Below, piece by piece: positions 14 through 24,901 of a stretch of DNA of 32,000 nucleotides (within the stretch, counting starts at the first letter, position 1; each line of letters starts with the position of its first letter). The DNA comes from Candidatus Jordarchaeales archaeon (GTDB taxonomy: Archaea; Asgardarchaeota; Jordiarchaeia; Jordiarchaeales; Freyrarchaeaceae), in the NCBI GenBank assembly GCA_038889235.1, contig JAWAHN010000001.1, forward strand, positions 1 to 32,000, written 5' to 3'. Under the pieces are notes generated by a model that had not been told where the DNA came from, did not search any database, and saw nothing but the letters and a program-made list of their open reading frames with translations. A program made the translations under genes and the position numbers.

Positions 14-1586
14 GAAACAAAAACAGTCCCCACAAATGGGGATTGAAAGACAACAAATAATACAGGCGGCCATAGAAGCCCGGCAAAAACAGAAACAAAA
101 ACAGTCCCCACAAATGGGGATTGAAAGACAACAAATAATACAGGCGGCCATAGAAGCCCGGCAAAAACAGAAACAAAAACAGTCCCCACAAATGGGGATT
201 GAAAGTGTTCCTCTCACTTGTTTTTTAATGTTTGCAATGAAACATGAAACAAAAACAGTCCCCACAAATGGGGATTGAAAGCGGACGATTGACTCAACGT
301 CCTCGCCCGCCACTGGTTCCGCGAAACAAAAACAGTCCCCACAAATGGGGATTGAAAGTAGTTAAAGTCCACTCCGAACTCCCTGCGAAGCAGCTGGGAA
401 ACAAAAACAGTCCCCACAAATGGGGATTGAAAGCAAAATTCCCTCTCAGATTTGAACACATACCATTTTTCTGAAAGAAACAAAAACAGTCCCCACAAAT
501 GGGGATTGAAAGCAAAAACCGATCTGCCGGAGCGAAAGGCTAGGGGCGAGAAACAAAAACAGTCCCCACAAATGGGGATTGAAAGTTTAAAACAAGCGTA
601 CCGTTCCTGCCCCCCACCACCAAACTGAAAAACTTTCAAGAAACAAAAACAGTCCCCACAAATGGGGATTGAAAGGACGGCAACCAAGCGCTTCCCCCCT
701 CTGGGCAGCCTAGAAACAAAAACAGTCCCCACAAATGGGGATTGAAAGAAAGATAATTGCGGACGCATCCCGCTTCACGATTCCAGAAACAAAAACAGTC
801 CCCACAAATGGGGATTGAAAGAAAGATAATTGCGGACGCATCCCGCTTCACGATTCCAGAAACAAAAACAGTCCCCACAAATGGGGATTGAAAGTATAAC
901 TGCAGCTATCTTTTCCGCCTCGTCCCGTGTTTGAAACAAAAACAGTCCCCACAAATGGGGATTGAAAGTCTGCAGAAGAGATGTACCTTGAGTTTTTTGC
1001 TAAGTTGGTGCGAAACAAAAACAGTCCCCACAAATGGGGATTGAAAGTTTATATTTTTTTCGTCCATTGCCTAAACATGAGCTCTTGAAACAAAAACAGT
1101 CCCCACAAATGGGGATTGAAAGTTAGCTACAATATATGTATAGGGGTGGTTGGACTTACTGCCAAGAAACAAAAACAGTCCCCACAAATGGGGATTGAAA
1201 GTCTCGCCTGCGCCACCCATCCCACCCCTCACCCTAGCCAGAAACAAAAACAGTCCCCACAAATGGGGATTGAAAGATCCTCAGCAGAGTGTCGATGAGC
1301 TGGGTGAAGTCGCTGACCGGAAACAAAAACAGTCCCCACAAATGGGGATTGAAAGCCAAAGATGTCAAGATAGAAGACAATCTAGGAGAAGTTATCTCTA
1401 GAAACAAAAACAGTCCCCCACAAATGGGGATTGAAAGTGCTACTAGTTTGCCTTTTTTAAGTTTTTTTGTCACGTAGAAACAAAAACAGTCCCCACAAAT
1501 GGGGATTGAAAGCCCGGTTTTAGGGAGATTACCCCGGCCATGTTTGCTACGAAACAAAAACAGTCCCCACAAATGGGGATTGAAAG
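14..1586 (+). CRISPR. CRISPR array: 21 repeats, 20 complete spacers (18 unique), truncated at the left window edge
   Basis: Repeat GAAACAAAAACAGTCCCCACAAATGGGGATTGAAAG (36 nt) starts at 14, 92, 170, 246, 323, 398, 477, 550, 640, 713, 786, 859, 933, 1012, 1087, 1166, 1241, 1320, 1401 (37 nt, extra C), 1477 and 1551. Spacers are 37-54 nt. The hairpin TCCCCA-CAAA-TGGGGA runs into the 3' ATTGAAAG handle typical of Cas6-processed class 1 repeats, which supports + strand transcription. Confidence 0.98.
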
Positions 1587-1689
1587 TTTTCTCTATTTCA
1601 GGTACTTTCACTCGCACCATTTTGAAGTAAAAGGAGTCTTCGCGTATGGGGGGTTGGAGGGTTTAGTTATTTTTGAGGTGGGATGTAAA

Positions 1690-1761
1690 GGTGGGGGTTT
1701 TGGTGGGGTTGTTTGGGGGTGGGTTTTGGGTTGGGTGGTGTTGGGGGGTTTGTTTGTTTTT
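1690..1761. repeat. 72-nt low-complexity tract of only G and T, matching the G-quadruplex consensus
   Basis: No A or C from 1690 to 1761. Seven G-runs of 3-6 nt (1693, 1705, 1715, 1721, 1728, 1733, 1743) are separated by 1-7 nt loops. Confidence 0.85.
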
Positions 1762-2278
1762 ATTTTTGTTTGAGTATTTGTTTGTATTGTTGTGCTAGTT
1801 GGGCGTAGCTTTCTGCGCTTAGTTTTATTGTTAGTTTGTGGTGTTCTTCGATTTTTTTGACTGGTTTTGCTGGGTTGCCGAGGACTAGGCTTTCGGGTGG
1901 GATTTGGGTGTTTGGTGTTATGACGGCTCCTGCTCCGATTATGCAGTTGTCTCCTATTGTTGCTCCGTCTAGTACTGTGCTGTTGATTCCTATTATTACG
2001 TAGTTTCCTATTGTTGCTCCGTGGATTACGGCTCCGTGTCCGACTGTTACGTAGTCTCCTATTGTGCATGGTGTTATTCCTGCGTGGATTGAGCAGTTGT
2101 CTTGTATGTTTGAGTATTTTCCTATTTTTATTGTTGAGAGGTCTCCTCTTACTACGGCGTAGTCGAAGATTGAGGATCCTTCGCCTAGTTCGACGTCTCC
2201 TGATACGAGGGCGTTTGGGCTGACGTATGCTGTGGGGTGGATTTTGGGGGTTTTGCCGAGGTATTCGATTATGGGCAT
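1760..2278 (-). CDS. gamma-carbonic anhydrase family protein (YrdA/CaiE/PaaY-like left-handed beta-helix)
   Basis: Hexapeptide repeats with the family segments VVRGD, SNIQDNCSIH and VTVGHGAVIHGATIG (three His ligands), plus a C-terminal helix. Confidence 0.92.
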   Translation of the reverse strand: MPIIEYLGKTPKIHPTAYVSPNALVSGDVELGEGSSIFDYAVVRGDLSTIKIGKYSNIQDNCSIHAGITPCTIGDYVTVGHGAVIHGATIGNYVIIGINSTVLDGATIGDNCIIGAGAVITPNTQIPPESLVLGNPAKPVKKIEEHHKLTIKLSAESYAQLAQQYKQILKQK

Positions 2279-2340
2279 GTGTGGGTCCCCCTGGGGGGAG
2301 GGGTTTGCTGGCTATTTTAGAGGTTGTTTTTTGTCTTTAA

Positions 2341-2453
2341 CTTTTCTGTTTTGGGTTTTGTTTCGGGTTTGGTTGTTGTGTTTCTTTTTCGGGTTTCTTG
2401 TTTGGCTTGTGTTTGGCGGGTTGTTTGGTTTGTGTTTTCGTGTTGGTGGGGGT
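2341..2453. repeat. 113-nt intergenic low-complexity tract with no A on + (no U in the - strand transcript)
   Basis: Read directly: no A between 2341 and 2453. Lies between the OsmC stop and the gamma-CA start. Confidence 0.8.
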
Positions 2454-2464
2454 AGGGGGTGTGT

Positions 2465-2893
2465 TTAGGGTTGCTTGGTTTCGGGTTTTACTTCTACGTT
2501 GACGGTTATTCCTTTGGTTACTGATTCTGTTACTGTGCAGTATTCTCTGAATATTTCGAAGCATCTTTCGGCTCTTTTTGGGATTTCTCCGGTGAAGACT
2601 GGCGAGAGGGTTACGTTGATTTCTTTGACTCTGAGTCTTCCTTCGGGTCTGTGTAGGGTTAGTTTTGCTTTTGCTGAGAAGGAGGCTGGCTCGGTTTTGG
2701 CTTTGCTGAGGCAGTATAGGAGGGAGCCTGACAGGCAGCCGGCTACTGCTGTTAGTAGGAAGTGGAGGGCGCTTGGGCCTTCGCTCTTTGCTTCTTCGAC
2801 CACGATTTTCTGTATCCCTTTGAACTCTACTGTGACTTTTCCGCCGCCGGCCCATTCTATGGTTGCTTCAATTGAGGGGGGTTCGGCGCTCAC
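2465..2893 (-). CDS. OsmC/Ohr family protein
   Basis: 142 aa with GPSALHFLLTAVAGCLSGS (first Cys) and FREYCTVTESV (second Cys), the OsmC two-Cys layout. Confidence 0.85.
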   Translation of the reverse strand: MSAEPPSIEATIEWAGGGKVTVEFKGIQKIVVEEAKSEGPSALHFLLTAVAGCLSGSLLYCLSKAKTEPASFSAKAKLTLHRPEGRLRVKEINVTLSPVFTGEIPKRAERCFEIFREYCTVTESVTKGITVNVEVKPETKQP

Positions 2894-2932
2894 GTTAAAC
2901 CACCCGTGGCGACCGGTTTTCTTTAACGGTTT

Positions 2933-3724
2933 TTATTTCGGCGTTATTCCTGTAAATTTTTGCGGTGGCGTCTTCTTTTTTTCTAGGAAGTTTTTGCTTC
3001 TCTGCTTGAATTCTTCGGTTGCCCAGACCATTGCTGTCACGTCTCTGGCGAGCTGCCAGTTTAGCATTGCCAAGTCGGTCCAGAACTTTAGGGAGGACTT
3101 GATTACCCTGAATGCTTGGGGGCTTGCTTTCTCGACGACTTCTAGTGCGAGTTTCTCTGCTTCTGTTTCTGCTTCGCTGTCCTCGACGACCCTGTTCACT
3201 AGGCCGAGCTGGTAGGCTTCCTGCGCTGTTAGAAGTTTGGCGGTGAAGAGGAGTTCTCTCGCTCTCTTTTCTCCGACTATTAGTGGTAGGAGTTGGACTC
3301 CGCCGCCCAGCGCTGTGGATCCGACCGCTATTTCGGGCTGCCCCAGCTTGGCTGACTTGCCGGCGACTACTAGGTCGCACATCATGGCGAGCTCGTGGCC
3401 GGCGGCGACGCAGGCTCCTCTCACGCATGCGACCACGAGCTTTCCTGTGTCCCTGACGATGTCGATGAGCCTCTTGTAGGCGCTCTGCCACCTTAGCCCG
3501 GATTCGAAGTCGCTTTTTAGGAGCTCGTTGAGGTCTGCTCCCGCGCAGAAGTCGCTTCCCTCGCTGGTGAGGATTATGGCTTTCACGTCGTCGTCTCTGT
3601 CGGCTTTCACAAAGGCGTCGTAGAGCTCGTTTAGGAGGGAGGTGTTTAGCAGACACGGCTTCCCCTTGTACACTATCCTAATCCAGGCTAGGGGCCCCTT
3701 CTTCTCCAGTTTCACCTGCTCCAA
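2933..3724 (-). CDS. enoyl-CoA hydratase/isomerase (crotonase) superfamily protein
   Basis: Motifs FCAGADL, GACVAAGHELAMMCDL, GQPEI and AQEAYQLGLVNRVV. Starts 4 nt after the dehydrogenase stop. Confidence 0.93.
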   Translation of the reverse strand: MEQVKLEKKGPLAWIRIVYKGKPCLLNTSLLNELYDAFVKADRDDDVKAIILTSEGSDFCAGADLNELLKSDFESGLRWQSAYKRLIDIVRDTGKLVVACVRGACVAAGHELAMMCDLVVAGKSAKLGQPEIAVGSTALGGGVQLLPLIVGEKRARELLFTAKLLTAQEAYQLGLVNRVVEDSEAETEAEKLALEVVEKASPQAFRVIKSSLKFWTDLAMLNWQLARDVTAMVWATEEFKQRSKNFLEKKKTPPQKFTGITPK

Positions 3725-17827: not shown

Positions 17828-19039
17828 ACTAAAATGCGGGAAACATTTCACCCTTTTTTCTTCAAAAATTGCTCCACCTTCTGCTTTTAGCTTCTCCCAA
17901 ATGACGACACTGCCACCTCCTACTCTACCCACCTCACTGTTTAGGCTCAGTTCCCCCTGATTTTCACATGTTTTTGCAGAATGCTTGAAGGTTTATTGGG
18001 TTGCAAGCGTTCAGGGGCAACTTTTACTAGTAGGCAGCTTTCTGCTTCTGCGCCCCACTCAGTTTCCCTTTATCCTTTTAATCACATGGACTTTACCTGC
18101 GTGAGGAATTCAGCCCCCTCAGTGCAGCTTCCAAAAGTCTCCGCTTGAACGGCTTTTCATGCAATGACGATTTTCACTAAAAGTTAGTGAAATACATATG
18201 CTTCCAACCAGAACCACTCAAATAACTAAGACCTAAAAAAGCGGAGAAGAAGCACTAGGGGACAAAAGGTTCTCGAATTCTTTAAGCAAAAAATTAACTT
18301 CCTTTTTCTTAAAGAAGTTAGTCCAGCGAAAAACGGTGGGAGGGGGTATTGTGGATAAATGGGTAAAAGTTTATGGGGGCGAGCTAGGGTTTAAAGGGAA
18401 GGAAATTCCTTTGTCGAGCTCGCCTCCCCCTAAAATTTTCTCTTTTTAAAAGGGCACTTTGATACTCGTATTTTTCGCATGGAGTTCTCTCTTGTGATTA
18501 CTAGTAAGTGGCTTTTCCGTTGCAGCCATGGGCACCCTTACGTACCTATGATTTGCACGCGCATCGCTCCTAGGTTAACGCTTCATTGAGCCCCTCAGCA
18601 ATATTAACGAGCCCATTGGAGGATCCATATAAGGGGGCTTTTTCACTGCGAACCTGCCATGCTTTGACGCCTTTCCTGTGTGGCAGGTTTATGACTGCTC
18701 CATTGGTGGAAGAGTGAGACGGATGGTGTAAGTTTTTAGAAGTCGGCTAGGTCTTCTGAGTTGGCCTTAAACTGTCACTTAGCCCTCTAGGGTGGTGGGG
18801 CCGCCGCAAGCAAAACTACGGCTAATTTAGAAGTTTCGTATTTTAAGTTGATGAGGCACTATGGTGGTTGCTTCCTTCGCGGCACGAACATATTTTATGT
18901 TGTAGTGCAGTTTTCTCTAGCCTTTGGCCGGGGGGCATTAACACTGTCTCCAAGCACCTAAAGAGGACTGGTGAGGGCTAAACTGGCGGTTTTCGTGCCG
19001 CGTGCCGTCGAGCCCGGCCTCTTTAGGACCCTTTCTTTT
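17828..19039. other. 1.2-kb region without long ORFs, rich in inverted repeats (candidate structured RNA or cis-acting DNA site)
   Basis: No ORF of 60 aa or more in the track. Perfect stems at 18172/18184 (9 bp), 18295/18314 (7 bp), 18378/18417 (8 bp), 18651/18681 (9 bp), 18878/18992 (11 bp) and 18957/19018 (10 bp). Confidence 0.5.
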
Positions 19040-19651
19040 TTAGAAACCCATTTCGAGCATTGTTAAGAGAACTTCGCTCGGGTGGAGCTCTAGGTTTTCC
19101 ACTTCGATTTCCACTATTTTTCTGAGTTTAACCTCTTCGCCGCTTACTATTTCTGCTATTTTCGCGTCGGCGAGCTGTTGACAGAGCTGCACCACCCTCC
19201 ACCTTTCAAGCCCCAACGTTCTAGCTATGGTTGTAAAGGACAAGTGTTGACCCTTCTTGTGGGCGTCGAGGAGCATGTCGTATATCTCTGCCCTCTTTTC
19301 GTGCGAGAGGGCGAAGCCCAGCGTTGCTGCTTCGTCCGCCGACATGTCGTCTAGAGTTTTCACCGACCCGTCTTCAACGTCGATAAGCTTGATTTTCAGT
19401 TTCTTATTCAAGAAGAAAACTACTCCTAGGTGGACGGCTTTGAGAACGCCTCCCAGACTAGGCTTGGACAGAAACCTGAGCTGGTCGTAGACATACTTGG
19501 ATGACTTGCCAGTCTTTTTCTTCATCCAGTTGGGGTTAACCACTTTCTTGTCGAACACTTCCTTCAGTATTTCCACTCTTGTCGGATGCGCTAGGGCCTT
19601 GAAGTACGGCACAGCGTTTTTCATGGAGTCGGTCAACAAGCACACCTCCAC
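19040..19651 (-). CDS. tandem winged helix-turn-helix protein (two ArsR-like repeats)
   Basis: Two related segments, FKALAHPTRVEILKEV and GFALSHEKRAEIYDML, each followed by an HTH and beta-wing. The GTG start shares 1 nt with the upstream TAG; a start a few codons later is also possible. Confidence 0.8.
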   Translation of the reverse strand: MEVCLLTDSMKNAVPYFKALAHPTRVEILKEVFDKKVVNPNWMKKKTGKSSKYVYDQLRFLSKPSLGGVLKAVHLGVVFFLNKKLKIKLIDVEDGSVKTLDDMSADEAATLGFALSHEKRAEIYDMLLDAHKKGQHLSFTTIARTLGLERWRVVQLCQQLADAKIAEIVSGEEVKLRKIVEIEVENLELHPSEVLLTMLEMGF

Positions 19652-22164
19652 TAGAGTGGTTCAACAGTTAAGGGGCCGGGCTTTGAGAAGATGAAGCCCG
19701 GCTGGAGGCAGTTCATTTCTCGAAGAACGTTTGCAAGGTTTAGTGCGGTCTCCTCGTCTATGGGGACGTCGAGCACTAGGAAGCGCTTCTTTTTCCTTCC
19801 ACTCCAGGCGCCGAAGAGCCCCGATATCAGTGAGAGGAGAGAGATGAATTCTCCGTCGCTCAGAGTGTGAATCTTTTGGGAGACACGTCTCCCGAGGACC
19901 AGTCGTTCCAGGACGCCTACGTCGACGTGGAAGTCCTTTATCCCAAGGATCTCGCCGATTTTCGGCAGGTCTTTGGAGAGCATGTTGAAGAACTCCCTTT
20001 TGGCATTGTCCTCTGTCCGGCTTAGGAAGCCCGCCACGATATCTGCGAGCTTGGCGCACCTCTCCACTGACGCTACGCGACTCTCCCGCTTTTCAATTTC
20101 CCTCGAGAGCGTGAGGAAGCGCTCCGCTTTGACCTCAAGCTCCTTGATCCGGTCCTCAAGGTTCTTCTTTGAAGCCTTAATCTGACTGACCTTCCTCTTA
20201 AGCTCAGCAGCCTCCTTCTTCACTTCCTCGTAGTTTTCTGTGGCGTACTGCTGCTTCAAGGACTCGAGCTTCCGCTCCTCTTCTTCAAGGTCCTTTCTCA
20301 TTTTTGCAGCTTTCTCACGCATATCCGCCAGCTGCGCTTCAGCACTTACTATCCTAGCCCTCAGAGACTCGATAACCCTTAAGCCTTCATCCCTCTCCCT
20401 TTTCGCCTTCTCAAGCTCACTCCTCAGCTTGAACCGCTCCTTTTCAAGCTCTTTTGCTGCCTCGTCGAGACCCCCAAGCTTCATCCTAACGGCGTCAAGC
20501 CTTAACTCGTATGTTTTTAACTCCTCCTCAGCCTCCTGAACCCTCCTCCTCAACTCGTTCACTTCTAGCTCCTTGCTCTTAACGGAGGCGCTGAGCTCAA
20601 CGTAACTCCTTTGAAGCTCTATCGCCTTGTCCACCTCCCTCAATATGTCTTGCAGCTCCTTCTGCCTGAACTGCAAGCTCCTAAGCTTCCTCTCAATCTC
20701 TCCTATGTGGCTTTCCAGCTCCTTGACTTCCCTTGAAAGGTTGACTGTTTCAGCGTGGCATAGGGGACAGAAACCTTTCTTCTCAAGCCAGCACTTGAAG
20801 TCCCGGAGGAAACGCGCCTCGGACGATAAGGAGCCTATGAATGGCTTAACGGATCTCTCGAGCTCGTCAGAGAGGCGCTCTCTGAGGGAGACGAGTGACA
20901 TGGTGTCGCTTATCTGTTCGGGGAGCTCAGCCACTTTAGCTCTGAGAGAGGCGTAAGAGTTGACGATCCTCTGAAGAGATATCATGTCCTTGTTCAGGTT
21001 AAACTCCTTGACGCGTAGCTGCTCCCTTAAATTCTCCAGCTCCGGCTTGAGACGGGATATGGCTTCGACAAGCTGCTTCTCCCTTTCAATGTAAACCCCC
21101 TTATCTTCCAAGGGTGTTTCCTTAGAGAGCTCAGCATCCACCACTTCCATTTTCCTACTGAGGGAGACTATCTCCTCTTCAGCGCTCCTAACCCTCTCCT
21201 CAGCCCTCTTGAGGTCGCCCTTCAACAACTCTACTTCTTTCTCGAGCTGGGCGACCCTCCTCGCCACGTCTTCAAACGTCTTCCTCATGAGGTCTACCTG
21301 TTCTTCCTTCACTCTGATGCTGTTAGCGAGGTTTTCCAGGCTAGACTTCTTAGCTTCAAGCTCCTCTATCCTAGCTGAGAGAGAAAGCTGCTCTTTCTCC
21401 ATGGAAATAATTTTCTCTCTGAGCTCGCCCGCCTCCCTTGCAAGTTTCGACGTAAGACCTAGGAAGGCTGCCTTAAGCTGGCTGACGTACTCTGAAAGGC
21501 TGCCTCCCCTGCTGGGAGAGGGCACGCCCTCCTCTGACAAGTACTCCTCGAAGCTCGTAACTTCGCTCTCAAGCTCTTCAAGCCGCATTTTTAGGCTCGT
21601 CCTCAGCGATTCTATGTCGCTTCTAAGCTGTTCAAGCAGGTCGAGGTAGGTTAGAGACCTCACCTTCTCTTTGAGCTGCTGGTAGCTCTTCTCCAGGTCG
21701 CCTCTTAGGATGAACACGTCCTTAATGTTACCTAGCACGGTCTCACCGGTGAACTTCTCGAGGAATGCTTCGACATCCCTGCCCTCAGCCAGAATCTCTC
21801 CTGTCTCCGGGTTCACCACGCGGCTCTCGACGTAGACCGCGCCATCCGGGGAGCGGGAAACCCTTCTGATCACCCTGATGAGTCTCAGCTCGCTGCTCGA
21901 AGGATTTGCAAGCTCGAGCTCAACTACACCGGTGTCCCCGGCAAGGTAGTCTTCGACTATTTTGACGTCTCCGACTATGCCGAAGAGTATGAGACGTGCC
22001 GTGGAGGTTTTGCCCGCCCCCATGCGGCCGGATATCTTGAAGGGGCCTCTAGGGAACGTGTACCACTTCGCTGGCTCATCGAAGCCGCTAAAACCTGCCA
22101 CACGGAAGCCGTTAATGAATACTCCATCTTCTACTTGAACGTCGGCATGCGGTCTTTCAACCAA
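19651..22164 (-). CDS. Rad50/SbcC-like SMC-superfamily coiled-coil protein with zinc hook and degenerate ATPase head
   Basis: N-terminal Walker A ISGRMGAGKTS, two long heptad coiled-coil arms flanking a central CPLC (aa 466-469, nt 20769-20758), and C-terminal LSDGE and FLVLDVP. TTG start with a GAGGTG RBS. Confidence 0.9.
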   Translation of the reverse strand: MVERPHADVQVEDGVFINGFRVAGFSGFDEPAKWYTFPRGPFKISGRMGAGKTSTARLILFGIVGDVKIVEDYLAGDTGVVELELANPSSSELRLIRVIRRVSRSPDGAVYVESRVVNPETGEILAEGRDVEAFLEKFTGETVLGNIKDVFILRGDLEKSYQQLKEKVRSLTYLDLLEQLRSDIESLRTSLKMRLEELESEVTSFEEYLSEEGVPSPSRGGSLSEYVSQLKAAFLGLTSKLAREAGELREKIISMEKEQLSLSARIEELEAKKSSLENLANSIRVKEEQVDLMRKTFEDVARRVAQLEKEVELLKGDLKRAEERVRSAEEEIVSLSRKMEVVDAELSKETPLEDKGVYIEREKQLVEAISRLKPELENLREQLRVKEFNLNKDMISLQRIVNSYASLRAKVAELPEQISDTMSLVSLRERLSDELERSVKPFIGSLSSEARFLRDFKCWLEKKGFCPLCHAETVNLSREVKELESHIGEIERKLRSLQFRQKELQDILREVDKAIELQRSYVELSASVKSKELEVNELRRRVQEAEEELKTYELRLDAVRMKLGGLDEAAKELEKERFKLRSELEKAKRERDEGLRVIESLRARIVSAEAQLADMREKAAKMRKDLEEEERKLESLKQQYATENYEEVKKEAAELKRKVSQIKASKKNLEDRIKELEVKAERFLTLSREIEKRESRVASVERCAKLADIVAGFLSRTEDNAKREFFNMLSKDLPKIGEILGIKDFHVDVGVLERLVLGRRVSQKIHTLSDGEFISLLSLISGLFGAWSGRKKKRFLVLDVPIDEETALNLANVLREMNCLQPGFIFSKPGPLTVEPL

Positions 22165-22361
22165 TATTGCGACACCTCAGTCATTAGCATTGAAGGAAAA
22201 ACGAGACTGCGAGCGCGCGTCGTTGCCTTAAGGTCCTCAGTTTTTTCACAATTTCCGTGAGAAAGAGGAAGGGGATGAGATATAAACTTATCGTGAAATA
22301 GCCTCGCGGGCAGCGAGGTTAGGGCTTCCGGAAGATAAATAAAGTCTCATGATCAAATATT

Positions 22362-22610
22362 TTGTGCGCTTGGGGGGTAGAATTGACAGGACTTAAGCTA
22401 GTCGAGAAGAGGTTTCCTCGCAACGACGAAGTCATATGGCATGACGACAGTGTGAAGGAGGCTATCAGTAGACTTGAGAAGGGAGAGGATGTATGGGTTT
22501 GCTCGAGGAAGCTATCGCTCCTAATAAAGATGTACGGCAAAAGAGTGGTGGTGGAACCTTTAAGCTGGAAGAGGAAGATGATCTTTAAGGTGTCCCGTGC
22601 CGAATCCTAG
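22362..22610 (+). CDS. small hypothetical protein (75-82 aa), divergent from the SMC-like gene
   Basis: Protein-like composition and codon usage. The real start may be TTG 22383 after GGGGGGTAG. Converges on the U32 gene stop. Confidence 0.6.
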   Translation: MCAWGVELTGLKLVEKRFPRNDEVIWHDDSVKEAISRLEKGEDVWVCSRKLSLLIKMYGKRVVVEPLSWKRKMIFKVSRAES

Positions 22611-22627: not shown

Positions 22628-24901
22628 TTAGGCGACACCTCTGAAGAAGTGCCCTCTTGTGAGGGGGGATAGCTTCCTCAGCCTTTCCTTGAGTGGTGAC
22701 GGATCCTCGCCGTCTAAGGCGGACCGGTACGCTCTAACGACTTCTTCTACGTAGCTTGAACTCCTTGCTCGGCAGTCCAATCTAACGACGTTAATGCCTG
22801 CTTCAGCCAGCTTTCCAAGGGCGTCTATCATGCAAAGGTCTCTTGAGTTGAGGACGTGCATTCTGCAGTTTTGGTCGAATGCTAAGGGGAAGCGGAACCC
22901 CCTTTCGTCCTCAATGAACAGAGATAGCTTGAAGCATGGCCTATCGCACCTCCCTTCAGGGTGAAAGACGCTCCTAGCGGTGCAGTGCTCTGAGACCATA
23001 AGCTCCAGCAACCCGTGGGCGAGGCATTCAACCTCCACGCCCCCCTTGCGCATCGACGAGATCTGCTTGAGTGTGAGTTCCGGGCTTAGCGTAACCCCTC
23101 TAATCCCCAAGCGTCTAAGCACGCTTAAGGAGACGGAGTTCGTTATGTTTAGGAAGTAGTCCGCATATACGGGGGCGACCGACGCTTCAAGTAACAAGTT
23201 AAGTGTGCCGTAGTTGCCTGCGATTACACCGTCGGGCTTAAGCGCCGCTAAATCCTTTAGGGAGGACGAAATTGAGGCGACATCGCTGTTCCGCGTTATT
23301 CTCGGAGTGGATAGCATAAACTCAGCACCGTGATCCCTGCAGTAATCCCTGCCCTCGCCGAGCTCTTCAAAACTCAAGGGGGAGCGGGGCTTGAAGTAGT
23401 CTCCTCCTATGACGACGCGGTCCGCTCCGTAGTCGACAGCTAGTTTGAGCAGCTCTAGGCAGTCGACACGCACGGATAGTTTAAGCTGACCGCTGCTTGT
23501 GGATGCGTCTGGAAACCGGTCGGGGGTGTGGGGGAAGGCAAGGGGTCCTTTCCCAGTGTCCCAGTGAGCTGTGAGGAGCCGAGCATCTTTACCGTCGGTG
23601 CCCCCCGGAGCATGGGGGCTTCTTAGGGATTGGTTGGAGCACCATTGTGTTGTACGACCGGCGGAGCCAGCCATTTTACAGCCAGCTTTCTCTAGAATGC
23701 GCTCGACCCAGCTGACTACTTGGGAGTCACGTGTCCTGTAAACTTTACAGCCTACGTGTGCCTCCCCGTCGAACGGCATACTTACGGTCTCGCCCGCCTC
23801 CGCGCGCTCGACCCGCCCATGCTTGGTGAGTATTTCGCTCACGATGAAGCCCGTCTTCCCCCATTCCCCGACTATTTCTAAGCCATCCCCGACACGTAGC
23901 TCCCTTGAGAGGCGCACTTTCAAGACACCCTTCTTGAGACCTGTAACCACGCCAACCTCGACGCCCACGTTGTCTGGTCTCTCGTAGTTCATCAGCTCTC
24001 TTCCAGGGTTGCCGTCCAGGTAGCCCTCGGTGAACCCCCTGTTGAAAACCGACATAAGCCTCTCCACGGCTCCTCTCTCAGGTGCCTTGCCCTTGAGAGC
24101 CCTCTCCAGTGCACGCTTGTAAACGTCAACAACGACCGCAACGTACTCCGGTCGCCTCATCCTACCCTCTATCTTGAGGCCGTTAACGCCCGCGTCCACG
24201 AGGTCGCGCAAACGGTTGACTAGGCACAGATCCTTAGTGCTGAGCAGGTGGCCTTCAGCGAGCACCCTCCCCGACTGATCGATTAGCTTGTAGCGCTTGC
24301 GGCACGGCTGAGCGCACCTACCCCTGTTCCCACTCCTCCCCCCTATTATGCTGCTCATGAGGCAGGCTCCTGAATAGGAGAAGCATAGGGCTCCGTGGAC
24401 GAACACTTCCAGCCACATGTCCGTAGTCGACCTAATTTTCCGGATCTCCCCCAGCGAAAGCTCCCGTGCAAGTATGACCCCGTGCGCTCCAAGCTTTTCA
24501 AGAAACTTGGCGGCCTCAGCGTTGTGGGTTGTTGTCTGCGTGCTCGCTATCAGCTTCAGTCCCTGCAAGCGTTTTCCCATCTCTAACACTGCTAGATCCT
24601 GGAATATGATGGCGTCCGCTCCTGCCCTGTGAAGCTCTTCAAGGTGGTGGGCGACCTCGCCGAGTTCCTCGTCGAATACCAGCGTGTTAACAGTGACGTA
24701 GACTTCGACACCGCGTGTATGAGCGTACCTTACGGCCTCCTTTATCTCTTCCATTGTGAAGTTTTCAGCGTACTGCCTTGCATTGAAAGACTTTCCACCA
24801 AGGTAGACCACGTCCGCTCCACACTCCACCGCTGCAAGGAAAGACTTCCACTCGCCTGCCGGAGCTAGGATCTTTGGCCGCATGAACCACCGTTCCTCCA
24901 A
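22628..24901 (-). CDS. U32 family protein, long two-domain form (RlhA/TrhP-like Fe-S RNA hydroxylase)
   Basis: Motifs GADVVYLGG, FVHGALCFSYSGAC...NRGRCAQPCR (four cluster Cys) and LKIEGRM. These are followed by a beta-barrel and a second degenerate U32-like domain (LSPEL, LMVSEHC, HVLNS). Confidence 0.92.
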   Translation of the reverse strand: MEERWFMRPKILAPAGEWKSFLAAVECGADVVYLGGKSFNARQYAENFTMEEIKEAVRYAHTRGVEVYVTVNTLVFDEELGEVAHHLEELHRAGADAIIFQDLAVLEMGKRLQGLKLIASTQTTTHNAEAAKFLEKLGAHGVILARELSLGEIRKIRSTTDMWLEVFVHGALCFSYSGACLMSSIIGGRSGNRGRCAQPCRKRYKLIDQSGRVLAEGHLLSTKDLCLVNRLRDLVDAGVNGLKIEGRMRRPEYVAVVVDVYKRALERALKGKAPERGAVERLMSVFNRGFTEGYLDGNPGRELMNYERPDNVGVEVGVVTGLKKGVLKVRLSRELRVGDGLEIVGEWGKTGFIVSEILTKHGRVERAEAGETVSMPFDGEAHVGCKVYRTRDSQVVSWVERILEKAGCKMAGSAGRTTQWCSNQSLRSPHAPGGTDGKDARLLTAHWDTGKGPLAFPHTPDRFPDASTSSGQLKLSVRVDCLELLKLAVDYGADRVVIGGDYFKPRSPLSFEELGEGRDYCRDHGAEFMLSTPRITRNSDVASISSSLKDLAALKPDGVIAGNYGTLNLLLEASVAPVYADYFLNITNSVSLSVLRRLGIRGVTLSPELTLKQISSMRKGGVEVECLAHGLLELMVSEHCTARSVFHPEGRCDRPCFKLSLFIEDERGFRFPLAFDQNCRMHVLNSRDLCMIDALGKLAEAGINVVRLDCRARSSSYVEEVVRAYRSALDGEDPSPLKERLRKLSPLTRGHFFRGVA

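Follow-up and report, generated by a model that had tools for sequence, protein, structure and literature searches.

Proteins of the SMC superfamily (structural maintenance of chromosomes) are usually understood as ATP-driven machines. In archaea this superfamily includes the family of archaea-specific SMC-related proteins (ASRP; NCBIfam NF045487), which comprises coalescin (ClsN) of the Sulfolobales and Sph1-4 of haloarchaea. ASRPs were defined as SMC-related proteins with a zinc hook, ClsN and Sph among them (Yoshinaga et al. 2022, PMC9389158). In Sulfolobus, ClsN gives the B compartment of the chromosomes its shape (PMC11344861), and in Haloferax both Sph3 and its neighbour RdfA are required for rod shape; haloarchaeal ASRPs (Sph3) have been discussed as cytoskeleton-like, and in a survey neighbouring gene pairs of this kind accounted for 84% of the SMC-like and 78% of the RdfA-family proteins (PMC10869688). 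Here we analyse a stretch of 32,000 nucleotides (nt) from a Candidatus Jordarchaeales archaeon (contig JAWAHN010000001.1 of assembly GCA_038889235.1, positions 1 to 32,000; below, the window), which carries on its minus strand a gene for an SMC-like protein of 837 amino acids (aa), followed by a gene for a tandem winged-helix protein.

The 837-aa protein keeps the Walker A motif and the Walker B Asp, while the four elements needed for hydrolysis are replaced, and the replacing residues are the same in every full-length ortholog and are maintained by purifying selection. Within the SMC/Rad50/ASRP superfamily it represents a variant that is both very narrow and very divergent and has a new partner; the kind of system is not new. 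The reading that we favour, and hold with roughly even confidence, is that two chains would be joined through the hook, with heads that bind nucleotide but hydrolyse it poorly or never, and would form together with the winged-helix subunit a stable tether or scaffold on DNA.

Head motifs of the 837-aa protein

From position 22164 down to 19651 the minus strand holds one open frame of 837 residues, running from a TTG start to a TAG stop; the interval and an intact frame of this length had been reported in a preliminary description of this DNA. Each of the motifs quoted in that description occurs exactly once in the protein. The features of the gene are the following, in window coordinates:

19651..22164, minus strand: gene of the 837-aa SMC/Rad50/ASRP-superfamily protein, start TTG, stop TAG (open reading frame and translation)
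22006..22029, minus strand: Walker A GRMGAGKT, residues 46-53, invariant across orthologs
21697..21714, minus strand: Q-loop equivalent FILRGD, residues 151-156, with R154 at the Gln position (hhalign and motif table)
20776..21648, minus strand: ascending arm of the coiled coil, residues 173-463, interrupted near 204-222, 347-355 and 411-420 (AlphaFold)
20758..20769, minus strand: zinc-hook motif CPLC, residues 466-469, in the apical loop 464-475, both Cys invariant (sequence and AlphaFold)
19948..20739, minus strand: descending coiled-coil arm, residues 476-739 (AlphaFold and Foldseek matches)
19849..19863, minus strand: signature equivalent LSDGE, residues 768-772, Asp for the first Gly (alignment)
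19762..19779, minus strand: Walker B equivalent LVLDVP, residues 796-801, D799 kept and V800 for the catalytic Glu
19750..19761, minus strand: D-loop equivalent IDEE, residues 802-805, 3 residues nearer to Walker B than in Rad50 and SMC
19681..19692, minus strand: His-switch equivalent IFSK, residues 825-828, Lys for His, with the chain ending 9 residues on

The preliminary description had read FILRGD, LSDGE, LVLDVP and IFSK as substituted hydrolysis motifs, a reading that depends on the register of the alignment. A MAFFT alignment with the Rad50, SMC and SMC5/6-like proteins of the same genome pairs LSDGE with SGGE, LVLDVP with IMDEP/VLDEP, IDEE with the D-loop LDEE and IFSK with IVSH/VVSL. 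A manual count gives 31 residues from the signature Ser to the Walker B Asp, both in the 837-aa protein and in the genome's Rad50. For the Q-loop this simple alignment was ambiguous. When the N-terminal head was compared by hhalign with an Mre11-linked Rad50/SbcC-like group (91.6% probability), VFILRGDLEK was paired with VFVRQGEVEE, which places R154 at the position of the Q-loop Gln. Protein-language-model features relate the N-terminal head half to AAA_23 (0.96), and the C-terminal half to the SMC_N/SbcC_Walker_B clusters (0.92). At the level of sequence, the register is supported by the alignments to the genome's Rad50 and SMC proteins and by the profile comparisons, and the four substitutions are confirmed.

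GRMGAGKT conforms to the Walker A pattern GxxGxGK[ST] and was correctly described as retained. The rest of the catalytic set is altered, with R154, S-D-G, D-V and K828 where the genome's Rad50 has Q, SGGE, DE and SH. The end of the head also differs, in two ways that the preliminary description does not list: Walker B and the D-loop are separated by 3 residues fewer than in Rad50 and SMC, and the chain stops 9 residues past K828, whereas Rad50 and SMC continue for about 30 residues or more, so that the last helix and strand of these proteins are lacking.

Distribution and selection

A word-indexed search of 5.8 billion proteins returned three relatives (62-71% identity), one of them labelled Candidatus Freyarchaeota, an Asgard phylum, and an exhaustive HMMER pass over 1.84 billion representatives recovered only that cluster and a fragment. 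The other matches of this pass were coiled-coil noise or a chance repeat match; the latter, the only match outside the coil (P0009), is a repeat protein that aligns over 40 residues round Walker A, and was rejected. Across 400 genomes of the phylum, one family has the gene in all five of its genomes, which span two genera, and in single copy in each. It was found in none of the six genomes of the sister family (87-100% complete), and in the rest of the 400 it is absent, save for one weak match confined to the coiled coil. No paralogue of the protein was found in its own genome.

The orthologs share 61-71% identity, and no complete copy has a broken frame. R154, D770, V800 and K828 are retained in all four full-length orthologs, as are G46-S54 and D799. 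Where dS could be estimated, the ratio of nonsynonymous to synonymous substitution rates (dN/dS) over the whole gene falls in the range 0.07-0.14; the least saturated pair (dS 0.98) has 0.093. Three of the four substitutions lie in the C-terminal head half, the most conserved region of the protein (76-88% identity) and the one with the lowest dN/dS (0.05-0.08). The preliminary description had proposed both an ortholog comparison and a dN/dS estimate, and these now show that every ortholog shares the substitutions, that canonical motifs occur in none, and that the gene is under purifying selection, with a dN/dS of about 0.1.

The loss of several catalytic motifs and the very long stem branch of the family (1.82 changes per column, see below) might be expected of a Rad50 or ASRP copy that is decaying and heading to loss. 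This is contradicted by the selection data, namely the intact frame, the low dN/dS and the invariance of the substituted residues, and also by contigs of a metatranscriptomic library from an unrelated study (RNA-library contigs below) that cover the gene. We give decay hardly any credence, in line with the earlier statement that the gene is not a pseudogene.

The same conservation bears on another explanation, in which the head is still a working ATPase and cycles like Rad50 and SMC, the catalytic residues having moved elsewhere, for instance to D803/E804 in the shortened D-loop or to R154, which could act on the gamma-phosphate. Nowhere is the protein more constrained than at the replaced positions and round them, as would be expected of a rewired site no less than of a dead one; the invariant D803 and E804 are nearer to Walker B by 3 residues than in Rad50; and some ASRPs keep D-E where close relatives have D-K or D-A, which hints at a flexible position in the wider group. 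However, four catalytic elements have changed together, including the signature Gly, and we know of no ABC-type (ATP-binding cassette) ATPase that hydrolyses efficiently when the Walker B Glu, the Q-loop Gln and the His-switch are all lacking. We therefore consider a working ATPase unlikely, though worth keeping in view.

Coiled coil and zinc hook

The 837-aa protein was modelled with AlphaFold on the 4-sequence ortholog alignment. The model has an antiparallel coiled coil formed by helices 173-463 and 476-739, with a predicted local distance difference test score (pLDDT) of 80-90; the coil would be roughly 40 nm long. CPLC 466-469 lies in the loop between helices 421-463 and 476-562, so that sequence and model together predict a CxxC zinc hook at the apex of the antiparallel coil, in place of the SMC hinge. 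The hook had been described as intact, which agrees with its apical position in the model and with the invariance of both Cys; the hook of the genome's own Rad50 is likewise CPLC. A Foldseek search with the model retrieved full-length chains of JetC, Rad50, condensin, MukB and Smc5/6 (E down to 1e-10). These matches reflect the SMC-type topology of the coil only.

Placement among Rad50, SMC and ASRP proteins

No family of Pfam, NCBIfam or PADLOC scores above its own cut-off for the 837-aa protein. The Rad50 models (NF003034, NF041034) give 62.6 bits against 700 and 74 bits against 1000, and for the SMC models TIGR02169/TIGR02168 the scores are 46.9 bits (cut-off 729) and 66.7 bits (cut-off 567), the best-matching parts being in the coiled coil. 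For the ASRP model NF045487 the score is 88.3 bits against 300, and its best stretch, residues 364-592, consists of coil and hook; arcadin-4/Rkd4 (NF053563) gives 17.1 bits against 860. At E 1e-30 or better the ASRP model matches nothing in the genome. A faint coiled-coil match accounts for the Pfam label PF24161 (CCDC39) on the orthologs, and sequence and profile searches of the PDB gave only coiled-coil noise and recovered no PDB Rad50. A recent duplication of the genome's Rad50 was also considered and rejected, as the pairwise BLASTP comparison is not significant (E 0.14).

For a closer comparison, ten bona fide ASRPs and two groups of Mre11-linked Rad50-like proteins were taken from Asgard genomes, and Halobacterium Sph2 and two ASRPs of methanogen plasmids were added; ClsN is not in the set. 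In a maximum-likelihood tree of the heads the family is sister to the 13-sequence ASRP clade, and not within it, with a support of 91/91; the stems are long, 1.38 changes per column for ASRP against the 1.82 of the family. In hhalign comparisons of the concatenated heads, the family matches ASRP at 73% and the two Rad50-like groups at 80% and 42%. The known families match each other at 93-99.6% in the same calibration (93-97% for ASRP against the Rad50-like groups), so that the 837-aa protein is an outlier. It has the features by which ASRPs are recognised, an N-terminal Walker A, a C-terminal Walker B Asp and a zinc hook between them (PMC9389158).

The ASRPs of our set have signatures of the form LSDSE, LSTSE, LSESE or LSKSE and a Walker B of D-K, D-A, D-S or D-E, and they lack the Q-loop Gln and the His and have a short C-terminal tail. 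By its motifs, the 837-aa protein shares the style of degeneracy of these nearest known relatives, and the family groups, weakly, beside them. The preliminary description has to be adjusted in two respects. The substitutions are present, as described, and conserved, and are less exceptional than had been assumed, since a non-canonical signature, Walker B, Q-loop and His-switch are usual in ASRPs. The name Rad50-like needs refining, since the protein passes no Rad50 model, has no Mre11 partner and falls weakly beside ASRP. The tree of the heads, narrower than the one that had been suggested, gives the sister position to ASRP, but topology tests leave the placements with Rad50 and with SMC unrejected (see below).

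Some further observations concern the ASRPs themselves. The ten Asgard ASRPs (loci L030-L039, genes at about 1450-3340 of each locus) have a Walker A of APNATGK[ST], a signature LSDSE or LSTSE and a Walker B of D-K, D-A or D-E, and are without the Q-loop Gln and the His. Three of these loci were inspected (L030, L034, L038), and in two of the three there is a similar small open reading frame (ORF) of 92-131 aa just upstream of the ASRP gene; two of the three also have a gene for a 234-239-aa AAA protein (PF00004) further upstream. On two Methanosarcinales plasmids (L061:3010-6175 and L062:3001-6015) the ASRP gene is followed by an RdfA-like gene and then by a winged-helix gene (HTH_45) of 161-165 aa, with a TnpB gene close downstream of the operon in both. 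Sph2 of Halobacterium salinarum pNRC200 (L060:2974-4926) has the Walker A GRNATGRTS, with Arg for the P-loop Lys, the signature LSESE and the Walker B LLDS.

The winged-helix partner

The second gene of the module lies directly downstream of the first:

19040..19651, minus strand: tandem winged-helix (ArsR-like) partner of 203 aa, start GTG (fold, conservation and distribution)

The last base of the TAG stop of the SMC-like gene is also the first of the partner's GTG start (junction TAGTG). The partner is directly downstream in every copy, is found only in the same five genomes, and is conserved at 73-83%, above the large protein. Its structure model (pLDDT 84) contains two winged helix-turn-helix (wHTH) domains. 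ArsR/SmtB repressors can be superposed on the second domain (Z up to 10.5, root-mean-square deviation 2.3 Å over 82 residues), the Z values for the wHTH fold being 10.5 and 9.7, and for the whole length the top Foldseek match is the tandem-wHTH factor PF0095 of P. furiosus. The partner stays below the cut-offs of the ArsR models (32.4 bits against 55) and of HTH_20 (21.7 against 27).

Other identities of the partner were considered. RdfA, which usually accompanies ASRPs in haloarchaea, was rejected, as there was no PF21811 match at E up to 1 and hhalign against three RdfA sequences gave 0.1%. A kleisin or ScpB-like subunit is unsupported, as a single JetABC chain (Z 7.6) appears among many generic wHTH matches. 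Comparison with the wHTH proteins of the methanogen ASRP operons gave 8.7%, which does not establish kinship. The predicted complex of the two head halves with the partner scored 0.00, a result that counts neither for nor against binding.

The folds closest to the partner, ArsR/SmtB repressors and PF0095, are those expected if it only regulates its operon and the 837-aa protein is a structural coiled coil that works independently of nucleotide, with a cytoskeletal or cell-shape role such as that proposed for Sph1/Sph3 and arcadin-4. Sph3 is indeed required for rod shape and has been discussed as cytoskeleton-like (PMC10869688). Against this, G46-S54 and the Walker B Asp are invariant at 61-71% identity, which is unexpected if nucleotide is irrelevant, and the high conservation of the partner, its downstream position, the overlapping codons and the identical distribution make a stoichiometric subunit likelier than a repressor. 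We judge a purely structural role of this kind to be unlikely, but not far-fetched.

Transcription and genomic neighbourhood

Four RNA-library contigs (95-99% identity) span 18915-22237, and one of them crosses the junction of the two genes. There is no coverage at 18005-18808 (non-coding) and almost none in the upstream spacer at 22238-22572. The coverage ends at 22237, downstream of a possible promoter element:

22281..22286, minus strand: TATA-like hexamer TTTATA, candidate promoter about 117 nt upstream of the start codon, inferred from sequence

This pattern fits a two-gene transcription unit that starts shortly downstream of the TTTATA box.

At the other end of the module, a long hairpin (18900-19045, minus strand) lies just past the partner stop, and the coverage ends about 40 nt beyond, at 18915; the region 18900-19045 folds no better than shuffled sequence (z -0.09). 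The partner gene is separated from an amidohydrolase gene by 1.2 kb (17828-19039) without an ORF of over 55 aa and, at 18005-18808, without RNA-library contigs. Rfam has no match anywhere in the window. In the other genus the corresponding gap is only 3 nt long, and a contig of the same genus has one of 613 nt, so that the stretch is not a conserved part of the module. On the upstream side, 22628-24901 (minus strand) encodes a 757-aa protein with two U32 peptidase-family units, the N-terminal one resembling TrhP/UbiU and the C-terminal one UbiV; it has the appearance of a U32 pair whose two halves have been fused, and lies upstream of the module in all genomes inspected. In a related genome a gelsolin-domain gene (L019:13911-14516) is found about 5 kb from the module, which agrees with an Asgard origin.

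We also considered whether the module serves against viruses or in the maintenance of mobile elements, in the manner of Lamassu, Wadjet or Rad50-like systems, as the PADLOC models of LmuB and JetC match the 837-aa protein with E down to 3e-20, ASRPs are frequent on archaeal plasmids and the nearest language-model cluster is mostly viral. The PADLOC matches, however, lie almost wholly within the coiled coil (e.g. 463-732), which does not qualify the protein as LmuB or JetC, and the module has no adjacent LmuA, JetA, JetB or JetD gene, nor a gene for a nuclease or another effector. The gene is in single copy in every genome of the family, its neighbourhood (U32 peptidase, amidohydrolase, GH1 glycosidase and PadR) is syntenic across the two genera, and a tblastn search of the protein against 72,556 plasmids gave no match. 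A defence or mobile-element function is very improbable.

The genome also encodes a canonical Rad50, in a cluster with Mre11 and a putative HerA, an SMC and an SMC5/6-like protein, these three with standard motifs, so that the 837-aa protein is an addition to these proteins and not a replacement. The cluster has four genes (G000 C1:219065-225193) and ends in an Mre11-like gene (C1:221619-222776) directly upstream of the canonical Rad50 gene (SGGE, DE, SH; hook CPLC); the two genes upstream of the Mre11-like gene look like NurA and HerA from gene order and sizes alone. The SMC gene is at C1:621512-625024 and the SMC5/6-like gene at C1:198134-201445.

Proposed mechanism

We propose that this two-gene module, confined to one Asgard lineage, encodes in its large gene a very divergent SMC/Rad50/ASRP-superfamily member, two chains of which would join through the zinc hook. 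As neither Walker A nor the Walker B Asp varies, the head would still bind nucleotide, and hydrolysis would be very slow or absent, because the catalytic Glu, the Q-loop Gln, the signature Gly and the His-switch are all replaced. The 837-aa protein might then act as a long-lived tether or scaffold, and not as a cycling motor, while the tandem winged-helix protein, apparently translationally coupled to it, would be its DNA-binding subunit, an arrangement that resembles the proposals made for coalescin and Sph. We infer nucleotide binding, lack of hydrolysis, dimerisation through the hook, contact with the partner and a DNA target, the first two from the head motifs alone.

Several points weigh against this proposal. 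Both head halves have a pLDDT below 50 in the AlphaFold model, and the geometry of the substituted site is not readable from it. D803 and E804, invariant in the shortened D-loop, could in principle provide a catalytic base. The hhalign probabilities of the heads are moderate only, and the approximately unbiased (AU) test rejects neither the joining of the family to Rad50 (p 0.22) nor to SMC (p 0.30). The best structural matches of the partner are ordinary ArsR-type regulators, so that it could be a mere repressor, and neither the strand nor a single transcript can be read from the RNA-library contigs.

The preliminary description had offered the inactive half of a heterodimer as another explanation. 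This is unlikely, since no paralogue occurs in the genome and one and the same chain carries changes on either face of the ATP site. Because the side of Walker B, Q-loop and His-switch and the side of the signature are altered together, pairing with a canonical head would leave no consensus site, a point that follows from established knowledge of asymmetric ABC dimers.

A more radical possibility would set the family apart from both Rad50 and ASRP, as an SMC-superfamily branch of its own that had no name before, in which a salt bridge between R154 and D770 across the head dimer would replace the ATP sandwich, giving a hook-linked ring or rod that is closed permanently, or independently of nucleotide, and fixed on DNA by the winged-helix subunit. 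We regard this as improbable.

Asgard archaea are the closest archaeal relatives of eukaryotes, and this lineage keeps a canonical Rad50, an SMC and an SMC5/6-like protein together with a strongly conserved fourth protein, which has a zinc hook and in which every hydrolysis residue is replaced. Along with the similar changes in the ASRPs of Asgard archaea and methanogens and in Sph2, this suggests that a whole archaeal branch of SMC-like proteins may work by binding and not by cycling, which bears on the way in which coalescin builds chromosome compartments and Sph affects cell shape.

Comparison with known systems

Like the ASRPs, the 837-aa protein has a head in two parts, a coiled coil and, in the place of a hinge, a central CxxC zinc hook. 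Both have an acidic or polar residue after LS in the signature (LSDSE, LSTSE and LSESE in ASRPs, LSDGE here), lack the Q-loop Gln and the His-switch, and have a short C-terminal tail ending in a strand like L-x-V-E-x-L; the Walker B Glu is replaced here and often in ASRPs. In many lineages ASRPs also have a small adjacent partner gene, a known pattern, since the pairing occurs as well on the Halobacterium and methanogen plasmids. In contrast to ASRPs (610-650 aa), the 837-aa protein is about 200 residues longer, has a full GxxGxGKT Walker A, an Arg at the Q-loop position, a 3-residue deletion at the D-loop and a CPxC hook, as in Rad50, and its partner is a tandem wHTH protein and not RdfA.

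With archaeal Rad50 it shares the architecture, the length (807 aa for Rad50), the identical CPLC tetrad, the N-terminal pattern of strand and Walker A and the 31-residue spacing between signature and Walker B. It differs from Rad50 in the replacement of the Q-loop Gln, signature Gly, Walker B Glu and His-switch, in the shortened D-loop and the missing last helix and strand, and in its neighbour, which is the tandem wHTH protein and not Mre11. The partner, like ArsR/SmtB proteins and PF0095, has two wHTH domains in about 200 residues, but unlike ArsR/SmtB genes its gene lies downstream of an SMC-like gene, with overlapping codons, and occurs only where that gene occurs.

The degenerate sites of heterodimeric ABC proteins offer a parallel for the altered head. 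In proteins such as CFTR, TAP1/2 and TM287/288 these sites have lost the Walker B Glu and the His-switch and have an altered signature, with Walker A kept, and they bind ATP stably with little hydrolysis. In those proteins one consensus site remains, and the altered motifs are split over two different chains. In the 837-aa protein every altered motif is on one chain and there is no paralogue, so that both sites of a homodimer would be degenerate.

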